Assembly (NCBI GenBank): GCA_964453935.1
Contig: CAYVPX010000017.1
Coordinates: 1 to 13,721 of the forward strand
Direction: 5' to 3'
DNA length: 13,721 bases
From: an uncultured bacterium
GTDB lineage: Bacteria > AUK180
Positions within the stretch are counted from its first letter, which is position 1. Every line of letters begins with the position of its first letter. Below are positions 2,627 to 13,721 of this stretch, piece after piece. Position numbers and translations under genes: made by a program. The notes under the pieces are model-generated. The model saw only the letters and a list, made by a program, of their open reading frames with translations, searched no databases and was not told the origin of the DNA.

Positions 2627-3251
2627 GATATTTATGGCTTATTTAGTAGAAAATTTCCTTAACCATTTTCACACGCTTTATTTGTTTGGGATAATTTTAA
2701 TTTATCTATTTTTACCTTTTGGTTTGGCAATTTCAGAAGAGATTTTGACTATTATAATAGGTATTTTGGTGGGCAGGGGTTATGTCTCACCTTTTTCAGG
2801 AATTGTTGGCACTGTTTTAGGTGTTTATCTATCTGACATTATCTGTTATTTTATGGGAGTTTTAGTCGATAAATCATTAAAATTACCTATTTTGAGCAAA
2901 ATATATAAAAAAAAGGATAGAATCAGTATATATGATAAATTTCATAATAAATTCAAAGGCGCTTTTATTTTAATAATAAAATTTCTGGTAGGCCTTAAAT
3001 TCTGGATATATGTAGGTGCAGGATACAAAAAGTTCAATTTAAAAACATTTTTAATTGAAGATTTTTTTGCTGCTATAATTTTTAGTCTAATTTATTTAGT
3101 TATTGGTTTTTACTTTGGGTCCCATTTGAATGAAATTTTAGTATTTTTAAATAATTTTAAATACTTACTTATTGCTTTAGTTGTAATAGGGATCACAATA
3201 TTTATTTTAAGGAGAAAAAAACATGAGAAAGACACATCCCATTTATCTTGA
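2625..3251 (+). CDS. DedA/VTT-family (SNARE-associated) integral membrane protein
   Basis: The protein has multiple TM segments. DedA-like motifs include LFLPFGLAISEEILTIIIGILVG (F-x-P..E..L..G core) and a second re-entrant-like element KFKGAFILIIKFLVGLKFWIYVGAG (K/RF-x-P/G-x-R/K-x6-AG pattern). The annotated ATG 2625 sits inside the putative -10 box, so ATG 2634 (MAYLV...) may be the real start. The 3' end overlaps the next gene by 29 nt. Confidence 0.55.
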   Translation: MIFMAYLVENFLNHFHTLYLFGIILIYLFLPFGLAISEEILTIIIGILVGRGYVSPFSGIVGTVLGVYLSDIICYFMGVLVDKSLKLPILSKIYKKKDRISIYDKFHNKFKGAFILIIKFLVGLKFWIYVGAGYKKFNLKTFLIEDFFAAIIFSLIYLVIGFYFGSHLNEILVFLNNFKYLLIALVVIGITIFILRRKKHEKDTSHLS

Positions 3252-4326
3252 TAAAAATGAGAATTTATACGGTCCTTCACACCTCGTTTATGAGTTCGTG
3301 CTAAAAATTAATAAGGAAATTTTTTCCTATTATTCAAGAAATTCAATTAACAGAATTTCTGAAAGCATTTTAAAATATTTGAAATATGATGCCAATAAAA
3401 TTATAATTTCCTATGGTGGCGAAGACCTTTTATGGCAAATTACAAATTTTATCCATGGTGAAGGGGAAAAGAAGCTACTTATTGCAGATAATTCGTGGTG
3501 GTATTATAGAAAAATTGCTGAAAAGGTAGGACTGAAAATAAAAACTTATAAAACTGTAAAAAAGGGAGATTATTGGGAAAATGGTTATGAAAATTTACTG
3601 AAAACTTTGAAAACCTATGATGGGAAATATGTTTTACTATGTTCGCCAAATAATCCTACAGGCGAGAGGCTTTTGAAAAATGAACTTTCAGAAATATTAA
3701 AAACTCATGAGAATAAATTATTTGTACTTGATGAAGCATATTGGGGGTTTGACTTTGATGAGGATGGAAGAATTGAGGATTATAATGAATTTTTAGAGGA
3801 ACATCCAAACCTGATTATATTACGAACCTTTTCAAAATTTTTTGCACTGGCTGGTGTTCGCATTGGTTTTGCTCTTTACGGTAAAAAGTGGCAAAAATTT
3901 AATGATTCCAATTATCGTTATCTTGGATATAATAAATTTTCTGAAGAAATTGTTATGAGAACATTGAGATCTTGCAAATATTATCATAAAATTGCCAGAA
4001 GAATTATGAAAGATAGAGAAAAAACTTATAATTTACTTAAAAACTTTGATGCTTATACTCCATTTAGGACATATACAAATTTTATAATTGTTAAAATAAA
4101 TAATTTAAATTTGAAGGAAGATTTAAAAAAAGCACTCACTAAAAAAAATATTGTAATTAAATGGTTTTCAGATGATGATAAAAATATGAAAGATTTTGTC
4201 AGGATAACCATTGGCAAAACTACACAAATGAAAAAGCTATGGAAAATATTTTTAAAAACAGCATTAAAGTATGAAAAAGACAAAAAGAATATTCCAATTA
4301 TTTCAAAGATCATTGAAGGGGAATAA
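3223..4326 (+). CDS. PLP-dependent class-I/II aminotransferase fold enzyme of the HisC/CobD subfamily (histidinol-phosphate aminotransferase / threonine-phosphate decarboxylase-like)
   Basis: Motifs: DKNENLYGPS (HisC N-terminal NENPxGPS), CSPNNPTGERL (NPxNPTG), VLDEAYWGF (IDEAY), and ILRTFSKFFALAGVRIGFAL (RTFSKAxGLAGLRxGY with the PLP lysine). A good RBS AAGGAGA sits 7 nt upstream of ATG 3223. Sequence alone cannot separate transaminase from decarboxylase chemistry. Confidence 0.8.
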   Translation: MRKTHPIYLDKNENLYGPSHLVYEFVLKINKEIFSYYSRNSINRISESILKYLKYDANKIIISYGGEDLLWQITNFIHGEGEKKLLIADNSWWYYRKIAEKVGLKIKTYKTVKKGDYWENGYENLLKTLKTYDGKYVLLCSPNNPTGERLLKNELSEILKTHENKLFVLDEAYWGFDFDEDGRIEDYNEFLEEHPNLIILRTFSKFFALAGVRIGFALYGKKWQKFNDSNYRYLGYNKFSEEIVMRTLRSCKYYHKIARRIMKDREKTYNLLKNFDAYTPFRTYTNFIIVKINNLNLKEDLKKALTKKNIVIKWFSDDDKNMKDFVRITIGKTTQMKKLWKIFLKTALKYEKDKKNIPIISKIIEGE

Positions 4327-5089
4327 AGCTGAAGAGTTTTTTGATAAACTTTTTTTCCGCCCAATTTCTTTTATTGTTGCATATTCTTTTTATAAGTTAA
4401 ATATATCACCGAATATAGTTACAATTTTATCAGGGTTTTCTGCTTTATTGGCATTTTTCGGGTTTTATAAGAATCAATTAATTTTAGGGTTTATATTTTT
4501 CTTTTTATCTTATTTGTTTGATCTTGCCGATGGTCAGGTTGCTCGCCTTTCAAAAAAGAGTTCACCCCTTGGCCGTATATTGGATGGTTATGTGGATATC
4601 TTTTCCTATATATGTGTCGCTTTTGGATTATCTTTTTACTTATTCCACCAAAACCATACATATACAGGATTCATATTATTTACTATACTCGGAATCTCTC
4701 AATCACTACATACATTACTATTTGATGGATTGAGAAATGAATATTTATGCTTAACGAAAAATTTACAAAATTGTAGAGAATACATGTTAAAAATGGACAT
4801 TCAAGAAGAAAAAGCAAAAAAGATGGCAAATTGGTATAATAAATTACAATGCATGATATTTAAAAAAATTGTTTTATTAGAAAAATTAGATGATAAAAAA
4901 CGTGATTTTTATATTTTATTCAACTCTTTTTTAGGAAGTGGAACTAAATATTTTTTCCTTTTTTTAGGCATTATTTTTCATAAAATTACGATTACCTTAT
5001 GGTTTTTAATCATTATTACCAATATTATTTTTATTATCTCTTATTTATGGGGAGCACATTATGAGAATAATTATACTGGCAGCAGGTAG
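4271..5089 (+). CDS. CDP-alcohol phosphatidyltransferase family integral membrane enzyme
   Basis: The signature D-G-x2-A-R-x8-G-x3-D-x3-D is present as FDLADGQVARLSKKSSPLGRILDGYVDIFSY. An N-terminal PNxxT element (ISPNIVTILSG) and several TM helices are also present. The only available start is ATG 4271, which overlaps the upstream gene by 56 nt. Confidence 0.8.
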   Translation: MKKTKRIFQLFQRSLKGNKAEEFFDKLFFRPISFIVAYSFYKLNISPNIVTILSGFSALLAFFGFYKNQLILGFIFFFLSYLFDLADGQVARLSKKSSPLGRILDGYVDIFSYICVAFGLSFYLFHQNHTYTGFILFTILGISQSLHTLLFDGLRNEYLCLTKNLQNCREYMLKMDIQEEKAKKMANWYNKLQCMIFKKIVLLEKLDDKKRDFYILFNSFLGSGTKYFFLFLGIIFHKITITLWFLIIITNIIFIISYLWGAHYENNYTGSR

Positions 5090-5777
5090 AGGACGAAGGC
5101 TTTCTCCTTTAACTGATACTACACATAAAACGCTTTTAAAAATTGGTGAAAAAACAATTTTGGAGCATACAATTGATAATTTTAAATTTTATAAAATACA
5201 TGATTTTCAATTTGTACTCGGTTATAGAGCAAATGATATCATTGATTTCCTGGATAAAAAGGGTATAAATTATTCATATGTAATAAATGATATCTGGGAT
5301 AAAACCAACAATATATATTCGCTATATCTTGCATTAAAAGAAGGTGATTCAGAAGATATTATTTTAATTGACAGTGATATCTTTTTTTCATATAAAATAT
5401 TGGAATCACTGTTTAGGCAAAAAGAAACTGCTTTTTTAGTCAGAAAAGGAAAATTAACAGAAGAGGATATGAAGGTTGTCATAAAAGATAATAGAATATT
5501 AAAAATATCAAAAGAAATACCTCTAAAAGAAGCAAGTGGTGAATCAATAGGTATTGAATATTTTACTAAAAAAGATTATGCTCTTCTTAAAAGTGAATTA
5601 GGGGATGTGATTGAAAATGAAACAAATGGAAAAAATCTTTTTTATGAGTATGCTTTTCAACGATTAATAGATAAAAAACTCATATCTCCCTATTCAATAA
5701 TCATAAATGATTTTGCCTGTGAAATAGACACGAGAGAAGACCTTGATTTTGCAAAAAATATTTTAAAAAAAAATTAA
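5061..5777 (+). CDS. LicC-family nucleotidyltransferase (CTP:phospho-alcohol cytidylyltransferase-like)
   Basis: N-terminal NTP-binding loop MRIIILAAGRGRRLSPLT. The sequence aligns well to S. pneumoniae LicC through the family-specific blocks FVLGY, TNNIYSLYLA (LicC YNNFYSLYL) and C-terminal EIDTREDL (LicC EIDSVQDY). RBS GGGGAG lies 6 nt upstream of the ATG. The start overlaps the upstream gene by 29 nt. Confidence 0.85.
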   Translation: MRIIILAAGRGRRLSPLTDTTHKTLLKIGEKTILEHTIDNFKFYKIHDFQFVLGYRANDIIDFLDKKGINYSYVINDIWDKTNNIYSLYLALKEGDSEDIILIDSDIFFSYKILESLFRQKETAFLVRKGKLTEEDMKVVIKDNRILKISKEIPLKEASGESIGIEYFTKKDYALLKSELGDVIENETNGKNLFYEYAFQRLIDKKLISPYSIIINDFACEIDTREDLDFAKNILKKN

Positions 5778-5910
5778 AAAAGATATGAAAAATACAGTAT
5801 GTCGAGACAACAGACAGATTTTATACTTAATTGGGTTTAAAAAGTAAAAAAGTAAATCCCAGCCCCTTAAAAAAATTTGATTTTTTTTAAAAAATAAATT
5901 AAAATAAAAT

Positions 5911-6555
5911 ATGTTAGACAAAGAGAAAATAGACCAATTGGTAGAAAAAGTTAAGAATGAATTTCCAAAGGGAATGTCACAAAATAATAATAAATTAATT
6001 ACTTTAGAGGTATCGGCTCACCATTTACATATTTCAAGGGAACATCTTGATATACTTTTCGGCAAGGGTTATGAACTTACATCTATTAAAGCTCTCTCTC
6101 AACCCGGACAGTATGCTGCAAAAGAAACAGTACGGATCGTGGGACCCAATGGCGAATACGATAATGTAAGAATATTGGGACCAGTAAGAAGTGAAACACA
6201 GGTTGAGATTGCAATGACCGATTGTTTCATTATTGGTATTGAACCGGTTATTAGAATGTCAGGTGATATTAATGGAACACCTGGTTGCATTATTTGGGGA
6301 CCAAAAGGGCATCTTGAATTAAAAAAAGGGGTCATTGTCGCAAAAAGACACTTTCACTGCACCCCGCAAACGGCAGAGAACCTTGGTTTAAAGAACAATG
6401 ATGTTGTTTCCGCTGAAATAAGCGGAGAACGAGGCGGTATATTGAGAAACATAATTGTTAGGGTTAGTGATAAATATGCAGATGCCATTCACCTTGATAC
6501 AGATGAAGGCAATGGTCTTGGTGTCAAGACCGGTGATCGTGCATATATTAAATAA
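5911..6555 (+). CDS. pduL: PduL-type phosphotransacylase (phosphate acetyl/propanoyltransferase) with N-terminal encapsulation-peptide-like helix
   Basis: The protein is colinear with Salmonella PduL across the conserved blocks: HHLHIS / HVHL-like, [69 protein letters not shown]. It has the two-repeat PduL architecture. The N-terminus [18 protein letters not shown] is a predicted amphipathic helix. Confidence 0.9.
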
Positions 6556-6569
6556 AATCGGAGGTAGAT

Positions 6570-6854
6570 ATGGAAGCATTAGGTATGATTGAAACAAAAA
6601 GTTTGGTTGCATGTATTGAAGCTGCAGATGCAATGGTAAAAGCAGCAAAGGTACAGCTTGTTGCTTATGAAAAAACTGGCGGCGGTTATGTAACAGCTTT
6701 GGTAAGAGGCGATGTAGCGGCTTGTAAAGCAGCAACAGATGCAGGTGCCGCAGCAGCACAAAGAGTTGGCGAATTGGTAAGTGTTCATGTAATTCCAAGA
6801 CCTCATCAGAATCTTGACGGAATTTTCCCTATCAAAGCTAAAAGCAACAAATAG
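6570..6854 (+). CDS. BMC-H hexameric shell protein (PduA/EutM/CcmK family, Pfam PF00936-type)
   Basis: [79 protein letters not shown] is near-identical in pattern to PduA ([52 protein letters not shown]). RBS GGAGGT is upstream. Confidence 0.95.
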
Positions 6855-6893
6855 AGGAAGTGGGATCTTTTTCCCACCACATAAGGACTTATT

Positions 6894-7163
6894 ATGTTAA
6901 TTGGAAAAGTTATCGGTAGAGTTGTTGCTACAAGGAAGGAAGAAAAACTTCATGGAGCAAAATTATTGGTGGTTCAGCCGGTTGGTCTTAATATGAAACC
7001 GCAGGGAGCACCCATTGTTTGCATTGATTCTGTAGATGCAGGATTCAAGGAAACCGTTCTCATTGTTCAGGGTTCTTCCGCTCGTTTGGTAACAAATCAA
7101 GGAAATAACCCTGTCGACGCTGCAATAGTTGGAATCATTGATTCCATTAAAATTGACGATTAG
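6894..7163 (+). CDS. BMC-P pentameric vertex protein (EutN/CcmL/PduN family), paralog 1
   Basis: 89 aa. N-terminal GKVIGRVVAT, then KLLVVQPV and D-x-VDAG-x-x-ETVLIVQGSSAR, as in EutN/PduN. Confidence 0.9.
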   Translation: MLIGKVIGRVVATRKEEKLHGAKLLVVQPVGLNMKPQGAPIVCIDSVDAGFKETVLIVQGSSARLVTNQGNNPVDAAIVGIIDSIKIDD

Positions 7164-7171
7164 GGAGAGAG

Positions 7172-8602
7172 ATGATGGATAAAAATGAGATTGAGAAATT
7201 GGTAAGAAAGGTCGTAGATGAATTCGTTAAGGAGGGCGTAGCAATTTCAAATTCGCAAAATGCTATTTCATCAAAAGAAGGAATATTTTCAAATATTGAT
7301 GATGCTATTACGGCAGCAAGAATAGCACAGAAGGACATTGAAAAACTTCCCCTTGATATAAGAAGCAAAATCGTTGACAATATGAAAAAGGTGGCACTTG
7401 AAAATGCCGATATGCTTGGAGAAATGGCTGTTGAGGAAACTGGAATGGGCAGAATGCCGGATAAAGCGGACAAGGTAAGGTTAGTTGCTAATAAAACACC
7501 TGGGGTTGAAGATGTAAAACCCATGGTCTATACGGGTGATCACGGAATGGTACTTGAAGAAAGAGCACCTTACGGGGTCATAGGAAGTCTTACACCTTCC
7601 ACCAATCCCCCATCTACGATTGTAAATAATGGGATCAGTGCCATTGCCGGTGGTAATGCCATTGTTTTTAATCCGCATCCGGCGGCAAAGAATGTTTCAA
7701 ACAAGACCGTTCAATTAATGCATCGTGCAATTATTGATGCAGGGGGACCAAAAAACCTTATCTGCAGTATTGAAACGCCTTCACAAGAAAGTAGTGAAAA
7801 GTTAATGAAACATCCGTATCTTAATCTACTCTTGGCAACAGGCGGGGAGTTCATGGTACATCTTGCAATGAATTCGGGAAAAAAGACCATTGTAGGAGGT
7901 CCGGGAAATCCGCCCTGTCTTGTTGATGAAACGGCGGACATATCCAAAGCCGCAAAGGATATCGTCATCTCTTCATCATTTGATAATAATGTGGTTTGCG
8001 TCCTTGAGAAGGAGGTCTTTGTCGTAGAATCCGTTGCAGATCAACTTATCTCTGAGATGAAAAAACACAATGTTTATGAAATAAAGGGTGACGATATAAA
8101 AAGGGTTACAGATCTTTTAATTGCAAAAGATGAGGGCACGGGTTACAGGGTTCCAACTATTAATAAAAAATATGTTGGAAAAGACCCATATATTATTCTT
8201 AAAGATGCGGGTATCACTATTCCTCAGAATACACGGCTTGCCATTATGCAGGTTAATTGGGACCATCCCATGGTGCAGGTTGAGCAACTTTTACCCGTAC
8301 TGCCCATTGTAAGGGTAAAGGACTGGGAAGATGGAGCCATGCATTCTCTTGAAACGGAACATCATTACAGGCACACCTTTATAATGCATTCAACAAATAT
8401 TGATAGATTATCATATATGGCAAGAGAATGTGATGCATCTATCTTTGTAAAGAATGGTATGTCCCTGCAAGGTCTCGGATATATGGGCGAAGGACCTACA
8501 ACAATGACCATCGCTACTCCGACAGGAGACGGTATAACAACAGCAATGACCTTTACAAGACGCAGACGCTGTGCATTAATAGATAGGTTCAGGATAGTAT
8601 AA
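7172..8602 (+). CDS. CoA-acylating aldehyde dehydrogenase (EutE/PduP family) with N-terminal encapsulation-peptide-like helix
   Basis: The EutE/PduP-type catalytic region FDNNVVCVLEKEVFVVE contains the active-site Cys, and the characteristic C-terminus TFTRRRRCALIDRFRIV is present. The N-terminus MMDKNEIEKLVRKVVDEF closely resembles the PduL N-terminus. RBS GGGAGAGAG is upstream. Confidence 0.9.
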   Translation: MMDKNEIEKLVRKVVDEFVKEGVAISNSQNAISSKEGIFSNIDDAITAARIAQKDIEKLPLDIRSKIVDNMKKVALENADMLGEMAVEETGMGRMPDKADKVRLVANKTPGVEDVKPMVYTGDHGMVLEERAPYGVIGSLTPSTNPPSTIVNNGISAIAGGNAIVFNPHPAAKNVSNKTVQLMHRAIIDAGGPKNLICSIETPSQESSEKLMKHPYLNLLLATGGEFMVHLAMNSGKKTIVGGPGNPPCLVDETADISKAAKDIVISSSFDNNVVCVLEKEVFVVESVADQLISEMKKHNVYEIKGDDIKRVTDLLIAKDEGTGYRVPTINKKYVGKDPYIILKDAGITIPQNTRLAIMQVNWDHPMVQVEQLLPVLPIVRVKDWEDGAMHSLETEHHYRHTFIMHSTNIDRLSYMARECDASIFVKNGMSLQGLGYMGEGPTTMTIATPTGDGITTAMTFTRRRRCALIDRFRIV

Positions 8603-8610
8603 AGAGTACA

Positions 8611-9927
8611 ATGCAATTAAATGATATTCAAAAAGCAGGGATTATTGGGTGTGGCGGCGCAGGTTTTCCCACATTCTTCAAACTTAAAAGTGAGGTTGAA
8701 ACACTCATCATAAACGGTGCAGAATGTGAACCGCTTCTGGAAACAGACAAAGAAATATTAAGGAACCATTTGGATATGGTTATTGAGGGGATTAAGACAG
8801 CAAAAGAACTTATAAAAGCGAAAGAGGTTTTTTTGGGTGTTAAGGAATACTATAAAGATCTTATTGAATATCTTAAAGAGAATGAAGAGGGATTCAAGGT
8901 ATTTCCCCTTGAGAATATCTACCCCATTGGTGATGAACAGCTTCTTGTTAAGGCTATAACAGGGAAAATAATCCCCGAAGCAGGGCTACCTCTTGATGTT
9001 GGAGTGGTGGTTCAAAATGTTGAAACAATCTATCATTTGGGAAGATTAAAAAAAGAAAACGAGAATTTTACTCATAGATTCGTTACTGTTAACGGCGAGG
9101 TTGAATTCCCATTTGTTGCGTATGTGCCCATTGGAACACCTGTTTCAGAATTATTAAATATTGCGAAACCCAAGATCCTATTAACGGATGCCAAGATAAT
9201 TGACGGCGGACCCATGATGGGTAAATTTATTACAGAGGAAGATTTTATAAAAAAAACAACCTCGGGTATCCTGGTAATTCCCAAGGAGCATAAATTGATC
9301 AGACAAAGGACACGGGATATTGACACCATAAAAAAGATATCAAGATCTGCCTGTATTCAGTGCAGAAGATGTACGGATTTTTGTCCGAGATATTTGAACG
9401 GTCACAGAATCGAGCCGCATAAGTGGATGAGAAATCTTGCTCTTGGAGAGGTACTTCCCAATGAAATGGCAAATATTTGTAGCGAGTGCGGTGTTTGCGA
9501 ACTTGTAGCATGTCCCATGGATATTTCCCCTAGATTGGTGGCACAAATAATGAAAAAACAGATGGCAGATAATGGTATGAAAAATGAGCATTATCACAAT
9601 AAGCCGGAGAAAAGCCGCGATTTTGCTGAATTAAGGAAGGTCAATACATTGAAATTAATGGAACACCTTGATATTGATCAATACAATGTTCATCCACACC
9701 TTGAGAAATTTACCATTGAGCCGGAAACAGTAAGAATATATTTGAACCAGCATATTGGAAAACCGGCAGAATCCAATGTAAAGATCAATGATAAAGTGAA
9801 AATAGGTGATGTTATAGGAAAATGCAAAGAAGGTGAGCTTTCCGTTTATTACCATGCCTCTATCTCAGGTAAGGTGGTATCTGTTGAAAATAATTATATT
9901 GATATAATAAATGAAAAAAATAGTTGA
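8611..9927 (+). CDS. PduS-like RnfC/NuoF-family flavoprotein with two [4Fe-4S] ferredoxin motifs
   Basis: The N-terminus AGIIGCGGAGFPTFFKL...INGAECEPLL matches the PduS/RnfC NADH-binding signature (GxGGAGFP, AECEP). Two CxxCxxCxxxCP motifs are present: CIQCRRCTDFCP and CSECGVCELVACP. The length of 438 aa is similar to PduS. Confidence 0.85.
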   Translation: MQLNDIQKAGIIGCGGAGFPTFFKLKSEVETLIINGAECEPLLETDKEILRNHLDMVIEGIKTAKELIKAKEVFLGVKEYYKDLIEYLKENEEGFKVFPLENIYPIGDEQLLVKAITGKIIPEAGLPLDVGVVVQNVETIYHLGRLKKENENFTHRFVTVNGEVEFPFVAYVPIGTPVSELLNIAKPKILLTDAKIIDGGPMMGKFITEEDFIKKTTSGILVIPKEHKLIRQRTRDIDTIKKISRSACIQCRRCTDFCPRYLNGHRIEPHKWMRNLALGEVLPNEMANICSECGVCELVACPMDISPRLVAQIMKKQMADNGMKNEHYHNKPEKSRDFAELRKVNTLKLMEHLDIDQYNVHPHLEKFTIEPETVRIYLNQHIGKPAESNVKINDKVKIGDVIGKCKEGELSVYYHASISGKVVSVENNYIDIINEKNS

Positions 9928-9938
9928 GGTAAGTAGTT

Positions 9939-10499
9939 ATGACTTTTAGAAATGCCATTGCCCTTGTTGAATTTAACAGTATTGCACATGGGATCGCCTT
10001 TGCAGATGAGATGGTAAAGGGCGGCAATGTTAAGCTTCTTGACAATTATCCCACATGTCCGGGGAAACATATTGTCATTGTTTCCGGAGATACTGACGCA
10101 GTAAAACAAGCGGTAAAAAATGGATTTACGGTAGGGAAGGATTTCGTTCTTGAGTACTCCATCATCCCAAATGTCCATGAAGATGTGTTAAAAGGAGCAA
10201 TGGGGATCCCATCTGTTTCATTGAATGATATAGATGCCATTGGTATCGTTGAGAGCTTTTCAATAATAAAATGTGTAGAGGCTGCAGATATGGCTTTGAA
10301 GGAATCTCAGGTAAAATTAGTGGACATGCGGCTGGGAAAAGCACTTGGTGGAAAAGCATACTTTATTCTCACCGGAGCGGTTGGAGCAGTAAAAAGCAGT
10401 GTAATGGCAGCAGTGGAATTCTTGAAGGAAAATACAAATTTGGTACAGTTCAAGATCATACCTGCTCCGGCAGATGAACTAAAAAAAAGTCTTTTATGA
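9939..10499 (+). CDS. BMC-T tandem-BMC-domain shell protein, PduT-like, with the conserved pore Fe-S cysteine
   Basis: 186 aa with two BMC domains (ALVEFNSIAHGIAFADEMVKGGNVKLL... and IGIVESFSIIKCVEAADMALKESQVKLVDMRL...). The N-terminal half aligns to Salmonella PduT, including the TICPGK motif, seen here as YPTCPGKH. Cys40 (nt 10056-10058) corresponds to the [4Fe-4S] ligand of PduT. RBS GAGGTAAG is upstream. Confidence 0.85.
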   Translation: MTFRNAIALVEFNSIAHGIAFADEMVKGGNVKLLDNYPTCPGKHIVIVSGDTDAVKQAVKNGFTVGKDFVLEYSIIPNVHEDVLKGAMGIPSVSLNDIDAIGIVESFSIIKCVEAADMALKESQVKLVDMRLGKALGGKAYFILTGAVGAVKSSVMAAVEFLKENTNLVQFKIIPAPADELKKSLL

Positions 10500-10509
10500 G
10501 AGGTAAAAA

Positions 10510-11124
10510 ATGAGAATTGCAATAGGAAGTGATCACGGTGGATTTGAATTAAAAAGAAAATTGGTCCCATTTATTGAATCCTTGGGGCATGAGGTCAGTG
10601 ATCTTGGAACATACACACCCGATTCTGTGGATTATCCCGACATTGCTGCAATTGTTGCATATGAAGTCGCAAAGGGTAATTATCCTTTTGGTATACTTAT
10701 CGATGGAGCCGGTATTGGCTCTGCCATTGCTGCAAATAAAATAAAAGGTATTCGTGCAGCCACGGTGAACAATATTTTCATGGCACAAACCGCAAGGGAG
10801 CACAACAATTCAAATATACTGGTTTTGGGAGCAGGACAAACAGGTGAAAATCTAATAAAAGATATTATCAAAATTTTTTTAAGTACACCATTTGCAGGTG
10901 GGAGACATGAAAGAAGAGTTAATAAAATCAGTAAATTAGAAGAAGCAAATCTTAAAGAGATTGAGAAATATACCAGTCCACCTAAAAAATTGATAACAGC
11001 CGACGATATTCGTTCGGCAAGTAGAAATGGCGAAAACATTCTTTATTACGTGAAGGGTGCCATTATAACTGAATTGGCTAAAGAAACTGCATTTGATCTT
11101 GGAGTGAGGATCGTAGAAAGATAA
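10510..11124 (+). CDS. RpiB/LacAB-family sugar-phosphate isomerase (ribose-5-phosphate isomerase B-like) fused to a ~60-aa C-terminal extension
   Basis: Residues 1-~140 align end-to-end with E. coli RpiB (IAIGSDHGGF, DYPD, GILIDGAGIGSAIAANKIKGIRA, REHNNSNILVLGA, GGRHERRV). The position of E. coli catalytic Cys66 is Asp65 here (GAT 10702-10704). Residues ~141-204 (SKLEEANLKEIEKYTSPPKKLITADDIRSASRNGENILYYVKGAIITELAKETAFDLGVRIVER) are extra relative to canonical ~150-aa RpiB. The stop overlaps the next start (TAATG). Confidence 0.85.
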   Translation: MRIAIGSDHGGFELKRKLVPFIESLGHEVSDLGTYTPDSVDYPDIAAIVAYEVAKGNYPFGILIDGAGIGSAIAANKIKGIRAATVNNIFMAQTAREHNNSNILVLGAGQTGENLIKDIIKIFLSTPFAGGRHERRVNKISKLEEANLKEIEKYTSPPKKLITADDIRSASRNGENILYYVKGAIITELAKETAFDLGVRIVER

Positions 11125-11390
11125 TGTTCTTGGCAAAAGTAATTGGCAAGGTTGTTCTATCACATTCCGAAGAGCAGATGCCTAAGTATAAACTTTTAAT
11201 TATTCAACCCATTAATGAGAAAGGAGAAAATACTGATGTTCCTCAAATCTCAATGGATATTGTGGGTGCCGGACCCGGGGAAACGGTGCTCGTTACCATC
11301 GGAGATGAGTCAATGCTCGGTTTTTTACCTGAACAACCGCCTGGGGATCTTTGCATTATAGGCATTGTTGATGACATAGGATTGGAATAA
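11124..11390 (+). CDS. BMC-P pentameric vertex protein, paralog 2
   Basis: 88 aa. AKVIGKVVLS...KLLIIQPI...DIVGAGPGETVLVTIGDES has the EutN/CcmL fold signature. It is TAATG-coupled to its flanking genes. Confidence 0.85.
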   Translation: MFLAKVIGKVVLSHSEEQMPKYKLLIIQPINEKGENTDVPQISMDIVGAGPGETVLVTIGDESMLGFLPEQPPGDLCIIGIVDDIGLE

Positions 11391-11668
11391 TGTATATTGG
11401 CAAGGTCATAGGTTCTGTTACCGTCTCCAAAGGAGAACCCGGACTAAAAGGCAAGAAACTCATAATCATAATGTTCCTTGATGCTAATGGCAAGGAAACG
11501 GGTAAGTACAATATTGCTGTAGATAAAATGGGTGCCGGATTTCATGAAACCGTATTATTGGTAAAGGGTAAAGAAGGAGTTGACATGCTTACAGGTTATA
11601 AACCGCCGGCAGACCTTACTATTTGCGGTATTATTGATCTTATAAATCATCCGAAAGATGGGAAATAA
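11390..11668 (+). CDS. BMC-P pentameric vertex protein, paralog 3
   Basis: 92 aa. GKVIGSVTVS...KKLIIIMFLD...DKMGAGFHETVLLVKGKEG. It is divergent from paralogs 1 and 2 but shares the pattern. Confidence 0.8.
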   Translation: MYIGKVIGSVTVSKGEPGLKGKKLIIIMFLDANGKETGKYNIAVDKMGAGFHETVLLVKGKEGVDMLTGYKPPADLTICGIIDLINHPKDGK

Positions 11669-11671
11669 ATT

Positions 11672-12322
11672 ATGGATTTAGGTTTTTTTATTTTTTTGAC
11701 AATTTTTGTTCTTATAACAGCAATTATTTTTATTGCAAGGAAGGGAGGGTTCAAAACAACCGAGAAAATTAAAGAGTTGTGGAAAGCAAACGGAATGGAT
11801 ATTCGCTTACTCGAACAAAAATTTCTGGGTATCTCCAAAAAGAAAGTAATTGCAATAAAAAGAGAACAAAAGTACTTAATAGTGGGAATGAACTGGGTGG
11901 TTAGTTCAGGAAGGAATCAAATACCATATTGGGGTATCGGTATCTTTACACATAGCGAGGTCATGAAATTTTCAATAACAAGGAGAAGACCTACTTTTTT
12001 AGATGGGAAGAGGATCAAATTAAATGATCCCGAACTTGATAAGATGCTCGTTTTAAAATGCAAGGATGAGGACTGGTTCAGAATGTACTTTAACGAAGGA
12101 GTGTTAATGGAATTTGCTCATACCATTCCCAAAAATACAATAATATCCTATGAAAAGAAATCACCTGTGAATATAAATAGTATTTTAGAGGAATTGGCAT
12201 ATGATCCCTACGAGCCCTTTATTATGGTAAAAAGAAGAGAGATCGCAGCATACTCTAAGGTATTTAATGAAACAATCGGTGTTGCTGAAAAACTCGCAAA
12301 AATATTTTTACATATTAGATAA
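11672..12322 (+). CDS. Hypothetical N-terminally membrane-anchored protein, tightly coupled to the BMC operon
   Basis: 216 aa. One N-terminal TM helix (LGFFIFLTIFVLITAIIFIA) is followed by a ~190-aa soluble domain with no motif I recognise. It starts 4 nt after the BMC-P3 stop. Its AT-rich codon use matches the flanks. Confidence 0.6.
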   Translation: MDLGFFIFLTIFVLITAIIFIARKGGFKTTEKIKELWKANGMDIRLLEQKFLGISKKKVIAIKREQKYLIVGMNWVVSSGRNQIPYWGIGIFTHSEVMKFSITRRRPTFLDGKRIKLNDPELDKMLVLKCKDEDWFRMYFNEGVLMEFAHTIPKNTIISYEKKSPVNINSILEELAYDPYEPFIMVKRREIAAYSKVFNETIGVAEKLAKIFLHIR

Positions 12323-12538
12323 GGTCCATTAGTCAATAATTGAAATAAATACTAAATGCTTAATAAAAAGGAGATAATATCACTGAATTACAGATATTCA
12401 GGGGATAAGGAACAAACAATTCATGAAATGTGATAAGGAGAAAAACTTATGGATACTATAATACAAACTTTATTCTCAAATGTAAATAGGCTTTTCTGAA
12501 AAAAGAATCAACTAAAATGGGGATGAGCAATAATTAGT

Positions 12539-13721
12539 TTATCTCGTTACTATTTTAAAAAATATCAGATTATTGGATGAAAATAAAGTTTTTGAGCTAT
12601 ATTGAAAATTATGATTTTTACGATTTCTGTAATGATAGTTTAAATATTTTTCTAAAATCGATATAAGTTTTTTCCCTATATCTGAGTTTTGTGTAACTAT
12701 TACAATATCCTTTCTGGTAATATTTTTCATTAAGTCTCTTCCTGAACTAAACCTATAATTTTTTAAAGTTTTATAATAAAATTCAGATCGTATTGTCCAA
12801 CCTATTGGTATAATTTTATATTTTTCAAAATTTTGGTATTCATGTAAAGGGCTAGCACCCTTTAATTGTTGCCACAAAGGGGCAATAGATAGAAATATTT
12901 TATCCGGGCCATAAATAGAATTAAATTTTCTAACTGAACTTTGAGCCATTTGGAATTGATTACTTGACCGAACATTTAAATTTTTTAAATTAATAAATCT
13001 TTTAATGCTTATTGGTAGCATTAAAATAATAAGAATAAGAAATATAAATTTTTCAATTTTAATATTTTCATACTTTGTAATTTTAAATGAAAAAATAATT
13101 AATCCCAAAACTAGAACATATAAAGGGTAGTTAATTCTTGTTCGAGATCTGATCATTATAATAAGGAAAATACCAATGAGGAGATAAATAAAATATGAAA
13201 TAAAAAAAATAATGATCCTTTTATTTATTTTTATTTTCCAAGACCTGATGATATTATATAGAAAAATTAAAATTGCAAATATACAAGGGAAAATAATATA
13301 TAAATAATTTCTCAAACTAACAATTGTTTTTTTTATTTCGCCCCACCAAATAAATTTTAAAAGAGGAGTTTGCCCTTTTGAATTTATTTCAAGGAAATTT
13401 TTAAATTTTTCAATGGAAAAAATTGTTTCATCATGTAAAAAAGAATACATTCCTAAAATATAATCTTCCTTAATCCAATTAACTGATGATAGTGCCATGG
13501 GGGTATTTTTATTAAAACCACCTCCAAAAAAATCGTAAAATTTTACTCTAGCATTATTATATTTTATAAATTTTGAATCTCTAAATTGTCCATTGATATT
13601 TGAAACAACAATTATTGTAATTAACAATACTCCAAAAATGATAAAAAATCGTTTCCAATTTTTAAATATAAAAAAGGTTAAACATATCGGTAATATATAT
13701 ATAGAAAAATATAATATTAAT
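12539..13721 (-). CDS. Polytopic integral membrane protein of unknown function (5' end outside window; the annotated start at 13627 is an internal TTG)
   Basis: The minus-strand frame stays open from stop 12539 to the window edge (…LILYFSIYILPICLTFFIFKNWKRFFIIFGVLLITII…). The codon at 13625-13627 is TTG, and hydrophobic segments continue upstream, so the gene is probably truncated by the window. There are at least 6 TM segments and a C-terminal soluble region. No family recognised. Confidence 0.5.
   Translation of the reverse strand, partial: LILYFSIYILPICLTFFIFKNWKRFFIIFGVLLITIIVVSNINGQFRDSKFIKYNNARVKFYDFFGGGFNKNTPMALSSVNWIKEDYILGMYSFLHDETIFSIEKFKNFLEINSKGQTPLLKFIWWGEIKKTIVSLRNYLYIIFPCIFAILIFLYNIIRSWKIKINKRIIIFFISYFIYLLIGIFLIIMIRSRTRINYPLYVLVLGLIIFSFKITKYENIKIEKFIFLILIILMLPISIKRFINLKNLNVRSSNQFQMAQSSVRKFNSIYGPDKIFLSIAPLWQQLKGASPLHEYQNFEKYKIIPIGWTIRSEFYYKTLKNYRFSSGRDLMKNITRKDIVIVTQNSDIGKKLISILEKYLNYHYRNRKNHNFQYSSKTLFSSNNLIFFKIVTR

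Follow-up and report, generated by a model that had tools for sequence, protein, structure and literature searches.

A probable MNdh/BMC-T(SE) cofactor-recycling module in a compact, SPU-like metabolosome operon of an uncultured bacterium

An NAD+-recycling module of metabolosomes was described by Sutter et al. (PNAS 2024, PMC11626177), who renamed PduS as MNdh and the cysteine-bearing PduT as BMC-T(SE). MNdh was found in 2,172 BMC loci, and in 97% of the cases its neighbour is a BMC-T carrying the Cys motif. A CoA-acylating aldehyde dehydrogenase (AldDh) occurs together with MNdh/BMC-T(SE) and without an alcohol dehydrogenase (AlcDh) in 361 loci, and the carriers include SPU types. [quoted passage not shown] Moreover, EPR of the co-purified complex together with voltammetry revealed that the BMC-T(SE) cluster is reduced in an NADH-dependent manner. 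This evidence was obtained in vitro with O2 as acceptor and with a shell-protein mutant that does not assemble (PMC11626177). For SPU compartments MNdh has already been cited as an NAD+ recycling route. A homologous pair is also known from the Pdu locus of Salmonella and Citrobacter, where pduS precedes pduT.

In our study we analysed a window of 13,721 bp which corresponds to one entire contig of a metagenome-assembled genome from an uncultured low-GC bacterium. It carries a small SPU-like operon with the gene order PTAC, BMC-H, BMC-P, acylating AldDh, PduS-like, BMC-T, RPI, BMC-P and BMC-P (Table 1). The genes are tightly packed with intergenic gaps of -1 to 39 nt. The original prediction described adjacent PduS-like and PduT-like genes, and indeed the two open reading frames are separated by 11 nt only, with the AldDh gene ending 8 nt upstream of the PduS-like start. 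As in the published module, a single-layer tandem BMC-T(s) with a C(P/S)GK pore motif directly adjoins the PduS-like gene and an acylating AldDh is encoded in the locus. The identical arrangement of AldDh, PduS-like and BMC-T genes was found in the relatives L001-L004, L006, L008 and L011, while L005 has an insertion of three small ORFs that separates the PduS-like from the BMC-T gene. The conserved core comprises eight genes, namely PTAC, BMC-H, BMC-P, AldDh, MNdh, BMC-T(SE), RPI and BMC-P. The set of shell genes is small, with one BMC-H and one BMC-T; there are three BMC-P genes here (36-38% pairwise identity of the paralogs, with protein 2 at 36-37% to the other two) and two in most relatives. 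PTAC has a helix-like N-terminal extension of 18 residues ahead of its domain, and AldDh likewise has a helix-like extension at its N-terminus (KNEIEKLVRKVVDEFV).

Table 1. Coordinates of the predicted features in the window and the basis of their assignment.
Feature	Position	Strand	Basis
PTAC, PduL-type phosphotransacylase	5911..6555	+	PF06130 E 1.9e-73, domain from aa 32; NF011652 249.8 bits (cutoff 209)
BMC-H hexamer shell protein	6570..6854	+	PF00936 E 4.6e-30; EutM-like, NF012018 152.7 bits
BMC-P pentamer (vertex) protein 1	6894..7163	+	PF03319 E 3.8e-30
AldDh, CoA-acylating aldehyde dehydrogenase	7172..8602	+	NF011927 614.5 bits (cutoff 403); PF00171 from aa 40
MNdh, PduS-type metabolosome NADH dehydrogenase, 438 aa	8611..9927	+	Pfam domains, motifs, PduS alignment
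GCGGAGFP, glycine-rich motif of the FMN/NADH site, aa 13-20	8647..8670	+	Motif and alignment
First [4Fe-4S] motif CxxCxxCxxxCP, C248-C251-C254-C258-P259	9352..9387	+	Alignment
Second [4Fe-4S] motif CxxCxxCxxxxCP, C290-C293-C296-C301-P302	9478..9516	+	Alignment
BMC-T(SE), PduT-type single-layer tandem-domain shell trimer protein, 186 aa	9939..10499	+	PF00936 in two stretches, E 1.6e-39
Cys40 codon in PTCPGK, predicted pore [4Fe-4S] ligand	10056..10058	+	Alignment to PduT Cys38
RPI, SPU-type RpiB-like	10510..11124	+	PF02502 E 1.4e-52, aa 3-140
BMC-P pentamer protein 2	11124..11390	+	PF03319 E 2.9e-21
BMC-P pentamer protein 3	11390..11668	+	PF03319 E 3.5e-22
216-aa protein with hydrophobic N-terminus	11672..12322	+	3 nt after BMC-P protein 3; no match in Pfam or NCBIfam

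The relatives sharing the module are environmental metagenome assemblies, and the flanks of L001, L004, L005, L006 and L008 are all different. T9SS sorting domains are present in the flanks of L001 and L008, which is a weak hint at the FCB group. In every host the module is richer in GC than its flanks and its GC content tracks that of the host (0.375-0.51). Therefore, the jump in GC content appears to be mostly an effect of coding composition, and we found no clear evidence for recent horizontal transfer as its source. A scan of positions 5600-12700 yielded 26 promoter-like sites, with 25.9 expected from shuffled sequences, and the terminator-like sites in this region were mostly located inside genes. 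The 216-aa protein encoded behind the last BMC-P has an ortholog with 74% identity in L006; L008 encodes an unrelated protein in its place. With its conservation restricted to the closest relatives, the 216-aa protein is probably either an accessory factor or no part of the compartment. For the same reason, and because it matches no family and has a hydrophobic N-terminus, we rejected it as a hidden DERA or another signature enzyme.

Among described BMC types the locus is closest to SPU loci, in particular to the PTAC-containing subtypes without BMC-T(dp), namely SPU1, SPU4 and SPU7 (Sutter 2021, PMC8217296; Dwyer 2024, PMC11585597). AldDh, PTAC, a PduS homolog, BMC-T(s) and a triplet of divergent BMC-P proteins are common to both. 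This also applies to the RPI. According to a net-gapless match to 2vvr, Asp65 of the RpiB-like protein occupies the position of the catalytic Cys66 of E. coli RpiB, a change from Cys to Asp that has been described as the hallmark of RPIs from SPU loci. The locus thus combines an RpiB-like protein carrying Asp in place of the catalytic Cys with AldDh and the BMC-P triplet. An N-terminal encapsulation peptide has been described for SPU RPIs, whereas the RPI analysed here has a C-terminal extension of about 60 aa instead. This extension resembles the N-terminus of EutQ (NF012001 positions 2-47 versus aa 159-203, E 4.6e-5). When 59 aa of the extension alone were searched against 1.84 billion representatives, only four matches were obtained, none of them with a Pfam family.

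The product of the PduS-like gene consists of Complex1_51K (aa 6-143, E 1.1e-40), a weakly matching SLBB domain (aa 158-185), Fer4_17 (aa 247-306, E 4.5e-15) and RnfC_N (aa 371-429, E 9.3e-14). Hence, the FMN/NADH domain (PF01512) is followed by SLBB (PF10531), a dicluster of two [4Fe-4S] sites and a C-terminal RnfC barrel-sandwich (PF13375), an order that is circularly permuted compared with RnfC and NuoF. The MNdh of the GRM1 locus of C. botulinum is the same four-domain permuted flavo-Fe-S protein. Compared with this GRM1 locus, our pair belongs to a small SPU-like operon. The predicted NADH/FMN motif GxGGAGFP is present as GCGGAGFP, and its residues G13, G15, G16, G18, F19 and P20 are invariant among 44 homologs. 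The same is true of all eight cysteines of the clusters. Two CxxCxxCxxxCP motifs had been proposed; this spacing is correct for the first one, but the second has four residues before its last cysteine (CxxCxxCxxxxCP), as in Salmonella PduS. Alignment with the annotated PduS of Salmonella was colinear over 95% of the length with 35.6% identity (E 1e-80). The Pdu protein has about 16 additional N-terminal residues and the same eight cluster cysteines including the wider spacing in motif 2. The PduS-like protein belongs to a small clade whose members are 56-99% identical to it, and the nearest homologs outside the clade reach only 42-45%.

Several database homologs of the PduS-like protein have been named RnfC by JGI, and its best matches in the PDB are structures of RnfC. 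Its AF2 model (pLDDT 93.9) likewise agreed best with RnfC (TM 0.64 over 334 columns), and the TIGR01945 rnfC model scored 246.2 bits, which is only 0.25 bit above the cutoff of 245.95. The protein could accordingly be taken for a genuine RnfC of a membrane Rnf complex with incidental BMC neighbours. RnfC (PDB 7zc6, 9eri, 8ahx) indeed contains homologous FMN/NADH, SLBB, dicluster and barrel-sandwich domains. However, its barrel is located at the N-terminus and not at the C-terminus, so that RnfC structures match in two permuted pieces only (aa 367-427 to RnfC 28-87 and aa 7-304 to RnfC 132-421), and the main stretch of TIGR01945 covers model positions 126-428 only. Moreover, the full-length colinear alignment is to PduS, all relatives show the gene translationally packed between those of AldDh and BMC-T, its predicted partner is a BMC shell trimer and no rnfABDGE genes were found in the window or in the relatives. 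We rejected a genuine RnfC on account of the permuted domain order and the absence of the rnf partner genes, and we regard this assignment as having practically no chance of being correct. The sequence comparisons confirmed the predicted grouping with PduS rather than with RnfC. Binding of FMN and [4Fe-4S] clusters, oxidation of NADH and complex formation with BMC-T are predicted by analogy to the published homologs.

The downstream gene encodes a PduT-type shell protein. Its tandem PF00936 domains matched 3nwg (E 7.1e-41) and 3pac (E 1.6e-33), and the AF2 monomer model (pLDDT 93.9) superimposed on 3nwg with a TM of 0.91 and an rmsd of 1.3 A and on 3pac with a TM of 0.81, in line with the single-layer PduT fold. 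PduT of the Pdu system is 35% identical and has the same pore Cys. The original prediction proposed that the Cys of the TCPGK motif ligates a cluster in the pore. In our alignments this residue, Cys40, corresponds to Cys38 of the annotated Salmonella PduT. It aligned with ICPGK of PduT in 3pac, with VCPGK of 3nwg and with the C38S position of 3n79, and a Cys occupies this column in 116 of the 118 homologs (motif C[PSAC]G[KR]). The monomer model places Cys40 in the pore-loop hairpin of domain 1 between the strands 31-40 and 43-50. By the geometry of 3pac and 3nwg, three Cys40 residues, one per subunit, would ligate a [4Fe-4S] cluster at the threefold axis. Our model is a single chain, and the pore geometry and the interface between MNdh and the trimer are taken from homologs.

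Taken together, we consider it likely that the pair represents an MNdh/BMC-T(SE) cofactor-recycling module in a compact aldehyde-oxidising metabolosome operon. AldDh is the predicted source of NADH in the lumen, where it would convert an aldehyde, most likely acetaldehyde, together with CoA and NAD+ to acyl-CoA and NADH, and PTAC would recycle the CoA. MNdh, docked on the PduT-type trimer from the lumenal side, would oxidise NADH at its FMN and pass the electrons singly through its two [4Fe-4S] clusters to a third one held in the trimer pore by the three Cys40 residues. A cytoplasmic acceptor would take over the electrons from this pore cluster. In this way NAD+ would be restored within the shell with no alcohol dehydrogenase involved, which would spare the half of the aldehyde that is otherwise given up as alcohol. 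The formation of a complex, the direction in which the electrons flow and the location in the lumen are transferred from the published homologous system, and homology and gene context are what support this function of the pair. The same trans-shell conduit in place of an AlcDh had been proposed for this locus, and each of the tests of sequence and context that we ran agrees with it. Its mechanism is identical to the published one. The accompanying statement that electron transfer across a BMC shell has been proposed but not demonstrated is outdated for the in vitro step, which is covered by EPR (PMC11626177), but it still holds where intact shells in vivo and the acceptor in the cytoplasm are concerned.

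The locus was also predicted to encode no B12-dependent enzyme, and this was borne out. Domains of B12-dependent enzymes, adenosyltransferases or alcohol dehydrogenases (PF00465) were absent from all plausible genes of the window, and neither an alcohol dehydrogenase nor a B12 enzyme was present within 10 kb of the module in L001, L004, L005, L006 and L008. Likewise, the PduCDE or EutBC enzymes with reactivase and adenosyltransferase that define PDU and EUT loci were found neither in the window nor in the 10-kb flanks of the relatives. The Pdu locus, in contrast, comprises a B12-dependent diol dehydratase, a reactivase, an adenosyltransferase and PduQ directly upstream of pduS. The lack of an AlcDh and of a B12 enzyme is a further parallel to the published module with its 361 loci. 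These absences cover the 13.7-kb contig and the 10-kb flanks of the relatives, and copies might be encoded elsewhere in the genome. Alternatively, the PduS-like protein might act as a cobalamin reductase and thereby regenerate adenosylcobalamin for an EutBC- or PduCDE-like enzyme encoded in a satellite locus, with PduT supplying or removing electrons. The colinear Salmonella PduS is annotated as cobalamin reductase, EUT-type satellite modules (EutABC) have been reported for certain BMCs of the SPU and HO types (PMC8217296), and the window is only a single contig. In addition, the enzyme generating the aldehyde must be encoded elsewhere, as it is missing from the operon. Nevertheless, B12 enzyme, adenosyltransferase and reactivase are all absent from the window and no B12 genes occur within 10 kb in five independent genomic contexts. 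The Cys-to-Asp hallmark of the RPI speaks for sugar-phosphate or DERA chemistry that does not depend on B12. Moreover, Sutter et al. argue that MNdh offers little room for a corrin and turns over NADH without B12 (PMC11626177). We thus regard the role as cobalamin reductase as very unlikely.

The same components could also serve another purpose than NAD+ recycling, such as the removal of O2 or reactive species for oxygen-sensitive cargo, sensing or gating by a redox-active pore or the import of electrons. The purified homologous complex used O2 as electron acceptor in vitro and its authors discuss oxygen removal (PMC11626177). No candidate gene for the physiological acceptor is conserved beside the module in the window and the flanks of the relatives. 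A protein with FMN_bind and Fer4_5 domains is located near the module only in the lineage of L001 and L008. On the other hand, the NADH-producing AldDh is the only lumenal redox enzyme encoded and an NADH-consuming enzyme is absent, so that the net flow must be directed outward for sustained turnover. The published potentials are downhill from FMN to the clusters (PMC11626177). As regards a dedicated O2 scavenging, the relatives are metagenome assemblies that come without information on oxygen exposure. We therefore consider these other purposes improbable, and recycling of NAD+ by electron export is the reading that we follow.

The locus differs from SPU loci in that DERA and TPI are missing. 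No DERA (PF01791), the signature enzyme of SPU loci, was detected in the window, in L001, L004 and L005 or in the 10-kb flanks of L006 and L008, and TPI is absent from the locus. That an SPU-like locus lacks its signature enzyme, both in the window and in five relatives, is the only point of our analysis that is mildly unusual, and it raises the small question of what feeds aldehyde to the compartment. One may speculate that the eight-gene module constitutes a distinct and minimal relative of SPU which lacks DERA and has MNdh/BMC-T(SE) as its sole route of NAD+ recycling. The aldehyde would then originate from a DERA encoded elsewhere, recruited via the catalytically altered RPI with its C-terminal EutQ-N-like module, or diffuse in from the cytoplasm. 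We hold this reading to be doubtful. If it were true, the compartment would be a generic organelle for aldehyde detoxification and electron export which is not substrate-specific, and a natural minimal system with obligatory electron export across the shell.

The model of electron export is not new as it was published in 2024 (PMC11626177), and the pair described here is an ordinary new example of it. Its significance beyond annotation is little. The annotation of the two genes should read MNdh/BMC-T(SE) instead of RnfC or cobalamin reductase. With this locus, one more lineage of uncultured bacteria joins the several hundred loci without AlcDh, in which the module is presumably the sole route of NAD+ recycling. 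With its eight core genes and no competing alcohol dehydrogenase, this very small operon could serve as a minimal system for studies on electron export.

Nine closely packed plus-strand genes (5911-11668; intergenic gaps of -1 to 39 nt) form a microcompartment operon in the window, which is a complete metagenomic contig of 13,721 bp. The PduS-like and PduT-like genes of the original prediction and their features were all found where they had been placed, in the order known from Salmonella, where pduS directly precedes pduT.

Genes of the microcompartment (BMC) operon and the gene that follows it
Feature	Position (nt)	Strand	Remark
PduL-type phosphotransacylase (PTAC)	5911-6555	+	
BMC-H	6570-6854	+	
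BMC-P (first)	6894-7163	+	
CoA-acylating aldehyde dehydrogenase (AldDh)	7172-8602	+	
PduS-like gene	8611-9927	+	
PduT-like gene	9939-10499	+	
RpiB-like gene (RPI)	10510-11124	+	
BMC-P (second)	11124-11390	+	
BMC-P (third)	11390-11668	+	
216-aa protein, hydrophobic N-terminus	11672-12322		3 nt past last BMC-P gene

The closest homologs (56-99% identity) belong to MAGs of uncultured bacteria. The module PTAC, BMC-H, BMC-P, AldDh, PduS-like, BMC-T, RPI and BMC-P recurs in the relatives' loci L001/L008, L004, L005, L006 and L011 with wholly different flanking genes in each, i.e. this eight-gene module without the aldolase DERA occupies at least five distinct genomic contexts. Within 10 kb on either side of it in the relatives there was no diol/glycerol dehydratase, ethanolamine ammonia-lyase, adenosyltransferase, alcohol dehydrogenase or DERA. 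Given its recurrence amid different flanks and these surroundings, the module is a self-contained unit, and the claim that the locus encodes neither a B12-dependent enzyme nor an alcohol dehydrogenase holds across the window and the 10-kb flanks of the relatives. A classical cobalamin reductase serving a B12 enzyme encoded elsewhere in the genome is very improbable here, even with the EUT-type satellite modules that exist for some SPU (sugar-phosphate utilising) and HO loci (PMC8217296). In one lineage (L001, L002 and L003), a gene for an IS200-type Y1 transposase (L001 6312-7160) immediately precedes PTAC, which hints at movement of the module between genomes. In L005, two tiny ORFs and a 122-aa four-helix-bundle protein (23S_rRNA_IVP/bAvd family) lie between the PduS-like and BMC-T genes (9195-9733), the only case seen in which the two are not directly adjacent.

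The 438-aa PduS-like protein carries the glycine-rich FMN/NADH motif GCGGAGFP (residues 13-20) and two four-cysteine motifs (C248/251/254/258 and C290/293/296/301), and none of these residues varies among 44 aligned homologs, the most distant at about 40% identity. Both cysteine motifs had been described as CxxCxxCxxxCP, which is correct for the first, whereas the second reads CxxCxxCxxxxCP: four residues separate its third and fourth cysteines, as in Salmonella PduS. The NCBIfam rnfC model TIGR01945 scored 246.2 bits, only 0.25 bit above its cutoff of 245.95, so pipelines will often label the protein RnfC. However, the RnfC barrel-sandwich domain PF13375 is located at the C-terminus (residues 371-429), so that matches to three RnfC cryo-EM structures fall into two pieces in permuted order. 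With Salmonella PduS, annotated as a cobalamin reductase, the protein aligns in one colinear piece over 95% of its length (35.6% identity, E 1e-80). Moreover, rnfABDGE genes were found neither in the window nor adjoining any relative's module. A genuine RnfC was rejected on these three grounds, and the C-terminal PF13375 and the colinear match bear out the grouping with PduS. Sutter et al. rely on the same circular permutation to tell the BMC enzyme apart from RnfC and NuoF (PMC11626177). The best structural matches of the protein model (pLDDT 93.9) were RnfC chains with a TM of about 0.62-0.64 over about 334 contiguous columns. Many database homologs also carry the RnfC label, and metagenome annotation is likely to mislabel PduS/MNdh-type proteins in this way systematically.

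The PduT-like protein (186 aa) has two BMC domains in tandem. Cys40, encoded at nt 10056-10058 within PTCPGK, falls in the same alignment column as the cysteine in ICPGK of Citrobacter PduT (3pac) and in VCPGK of the homolog from Desulfitobacterium (3nwg), as the residue mutated in the C38S structure from Salmonella (3n79), and as the cysteine of annotated Salmonella PduT. The column holds Cys in 116 of 118 homologs within the motif C[P/S/A/C]G[K/R]; the predicted cluster-ligand-type Cys in TCPGK is thus retained. A monomer model from the 118-sequence alignment (pLDDT 93.9) superposes on 3nwg with a TM of 0.91 (rmsd 1.3 A) and on PduT 3pac with a TM of 0.81, and places Cys40 at the end of strand 31-40, at the hairpin into strand 43-50. 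In BMC-domain proteins the hairpin loop at this position lines the central pore. Three Cys40 would converge on the threefold axis by analogy with the PduT crystal structures, from which the arrangement was taken because the model is a monomer.

In the electron conduit of the original prediction, the flavoprotein would re-oxidise NADH from the lumenal AldDh and hand the electrons via its two clusters to the one in the PduT-type pore, from where they would reach a cytoplasmic acceptor; this relay would replace an alcohol dehydrogenase. Homology and gene context make this the best-supported explanation. It is also already published and reproduces the established MNdh/BMC-T(SE) model. In a survey of more than 7,000 BMC loci, Sutter et al. 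(PNAS 2024, PMC11626177) found the enzyme in 2,172, in 97% of which its gene adjoins a BMC-T with a universally conserved Cys motif, and gave the pair the new names MNdh and BMC-T(SE). The enzyme is confined to AldDh-containing loci, 361 of them without alcohol dehydrogenase, and its carriers include types that do not use B12 (GRM, PVM, taurine, MIC, MUF, FRAG, SPU). The C. botulinum complex was co-purified with FMN and Fe-S clusters and oxidised NADH with a kcat of 20 s-1; in EPR, NADH reduced a cluster whose g-values are those of the BMC-T(SE) cluster, and voltammetry assigned five redox waves (PMC11626177). The statement that such electron transfer was proposed but not demonstrated is therefore outdated for the enzyme-to-shell-protein step, but still holds where intact compartments or the identity of the external acceptor are concerned. 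For SPU loci, MNdh was named as an alternative NAD+ recycling route (PMC11585597), and a 2025 preprint applied the model to SPU-type compartments of Hodarchaeales. Use of the same relay for oxygen scavenging, redox gating or inward electron flow is unlikely and fits poorly, as the only encoded lumenal redox enzyme produces NADH. AldDh and PTAC have short helix-like N-terminal extensions before their catalytic domains (including KNEIEKLVRKVVDEFV) that look like encapsulation peptides. The PduS-like protein has no such extension, which fits recruitment via the shell trimer.

The locus resembles SPU loci in its SPU-type RPI, AldDh, PTAC, PduS homolog and multiple BMC-P, of which the three paralogs share 36-38% identity. 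However, SPU is defined by its signature aldolase DERA (PMC8217296), and neither the window nor the flanks of any of the five relatives contain DERA (PF01791); TPI is also absent from the locus. Therefore, the locus is classed here as SPU-like and DERA-less, not as an SPU member. The aldehyde could come either from a DERA whose gene lies elsewhere, a situation reported for some HO-BMC genomes (PMC8217296), or from another source. Secreted Endonuclease I proteins with fn3 and T9SS C-terminal sorting domains are encoded in L001 (14140-15498) and L008 (14043-15434), about 0.4 kb downstream of the gene after the module, and are not conserved in other relatives. They would be consistent with hosts that scavenge extracellular DNA to supply a deoxyribose-based pathway, and the T9SS domain hints at hosts in the FCB group.

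In the window RPI, Asp65 (nt 10702-10704) occupies the position of the catalytic Cys66 of E. coli RpiB. Dwyer et al. reported this substitution in all SPU RPIs and negligible ribose-5-phosphate isomerase activity of a tested one (PMC11585597), so that the window RPI may by analogy be a scaffold rather than an isomerase. Published SPU RPIs carry an N-terminal encapsulation peptide, whereas this one has a 60-aa C-terminal extension (aa 146-204, window 10945-11124; …KKLITADDIRSASRNGENILYYVKGAIITELAKETAFDLGVRIVER) weakly resembling the EutQ N-terminus (E 4.6e-5) and TIGR02536. A motif of about 45 aa from it occurs in 2-3 tandem copies in small proteins of no Pfam family (P0361-P0363) and C-terminally in other BMC-type RPIs (P0280, P0328). 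The extension may be a shell- or cargo-docking module.

The GC content of the operon is 0.39 compared with 0.26-0.28 in the flanks. Since the module in the relatives also exceeds its flanks, by 3-12 points, and follows the host GC (0.375-0.51), this jump by itself is no evidence of recent transfer. The 216-aa protein has no family match; a 74% identical counterpart occurs in L006 and an unrelated 267-aa protein takes its place in L001/L008. The operon is flanked by genes for a Ser/Thr kinase with PEGA repeats, a VTT-domain membrane protein, an aminotransferase, a CDP-alcohol phosphatidyltransferase, a nucleotidyltransferase and a membrane protein without assignment; none of these flanking genes is related to microcompartments. 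Three of them, for the class I/II aminotransferase, the CDP-alcohol phosphatidyltransferase and the nucleotidyltransferase, are overlapping low-GC genes 5' of the operon (3223-5777) that resemble a pathway for activating and transferring the head group of a lipid or polymer and show no evident connection to the compartment.

The pair in the window adds an instance of the established MNdh/BMC-T(SE) model and not a new mechanism. The very small operon, which lacks both alcohol dehydrogenase and DERA, could serve as a minimal system for testing electron export.
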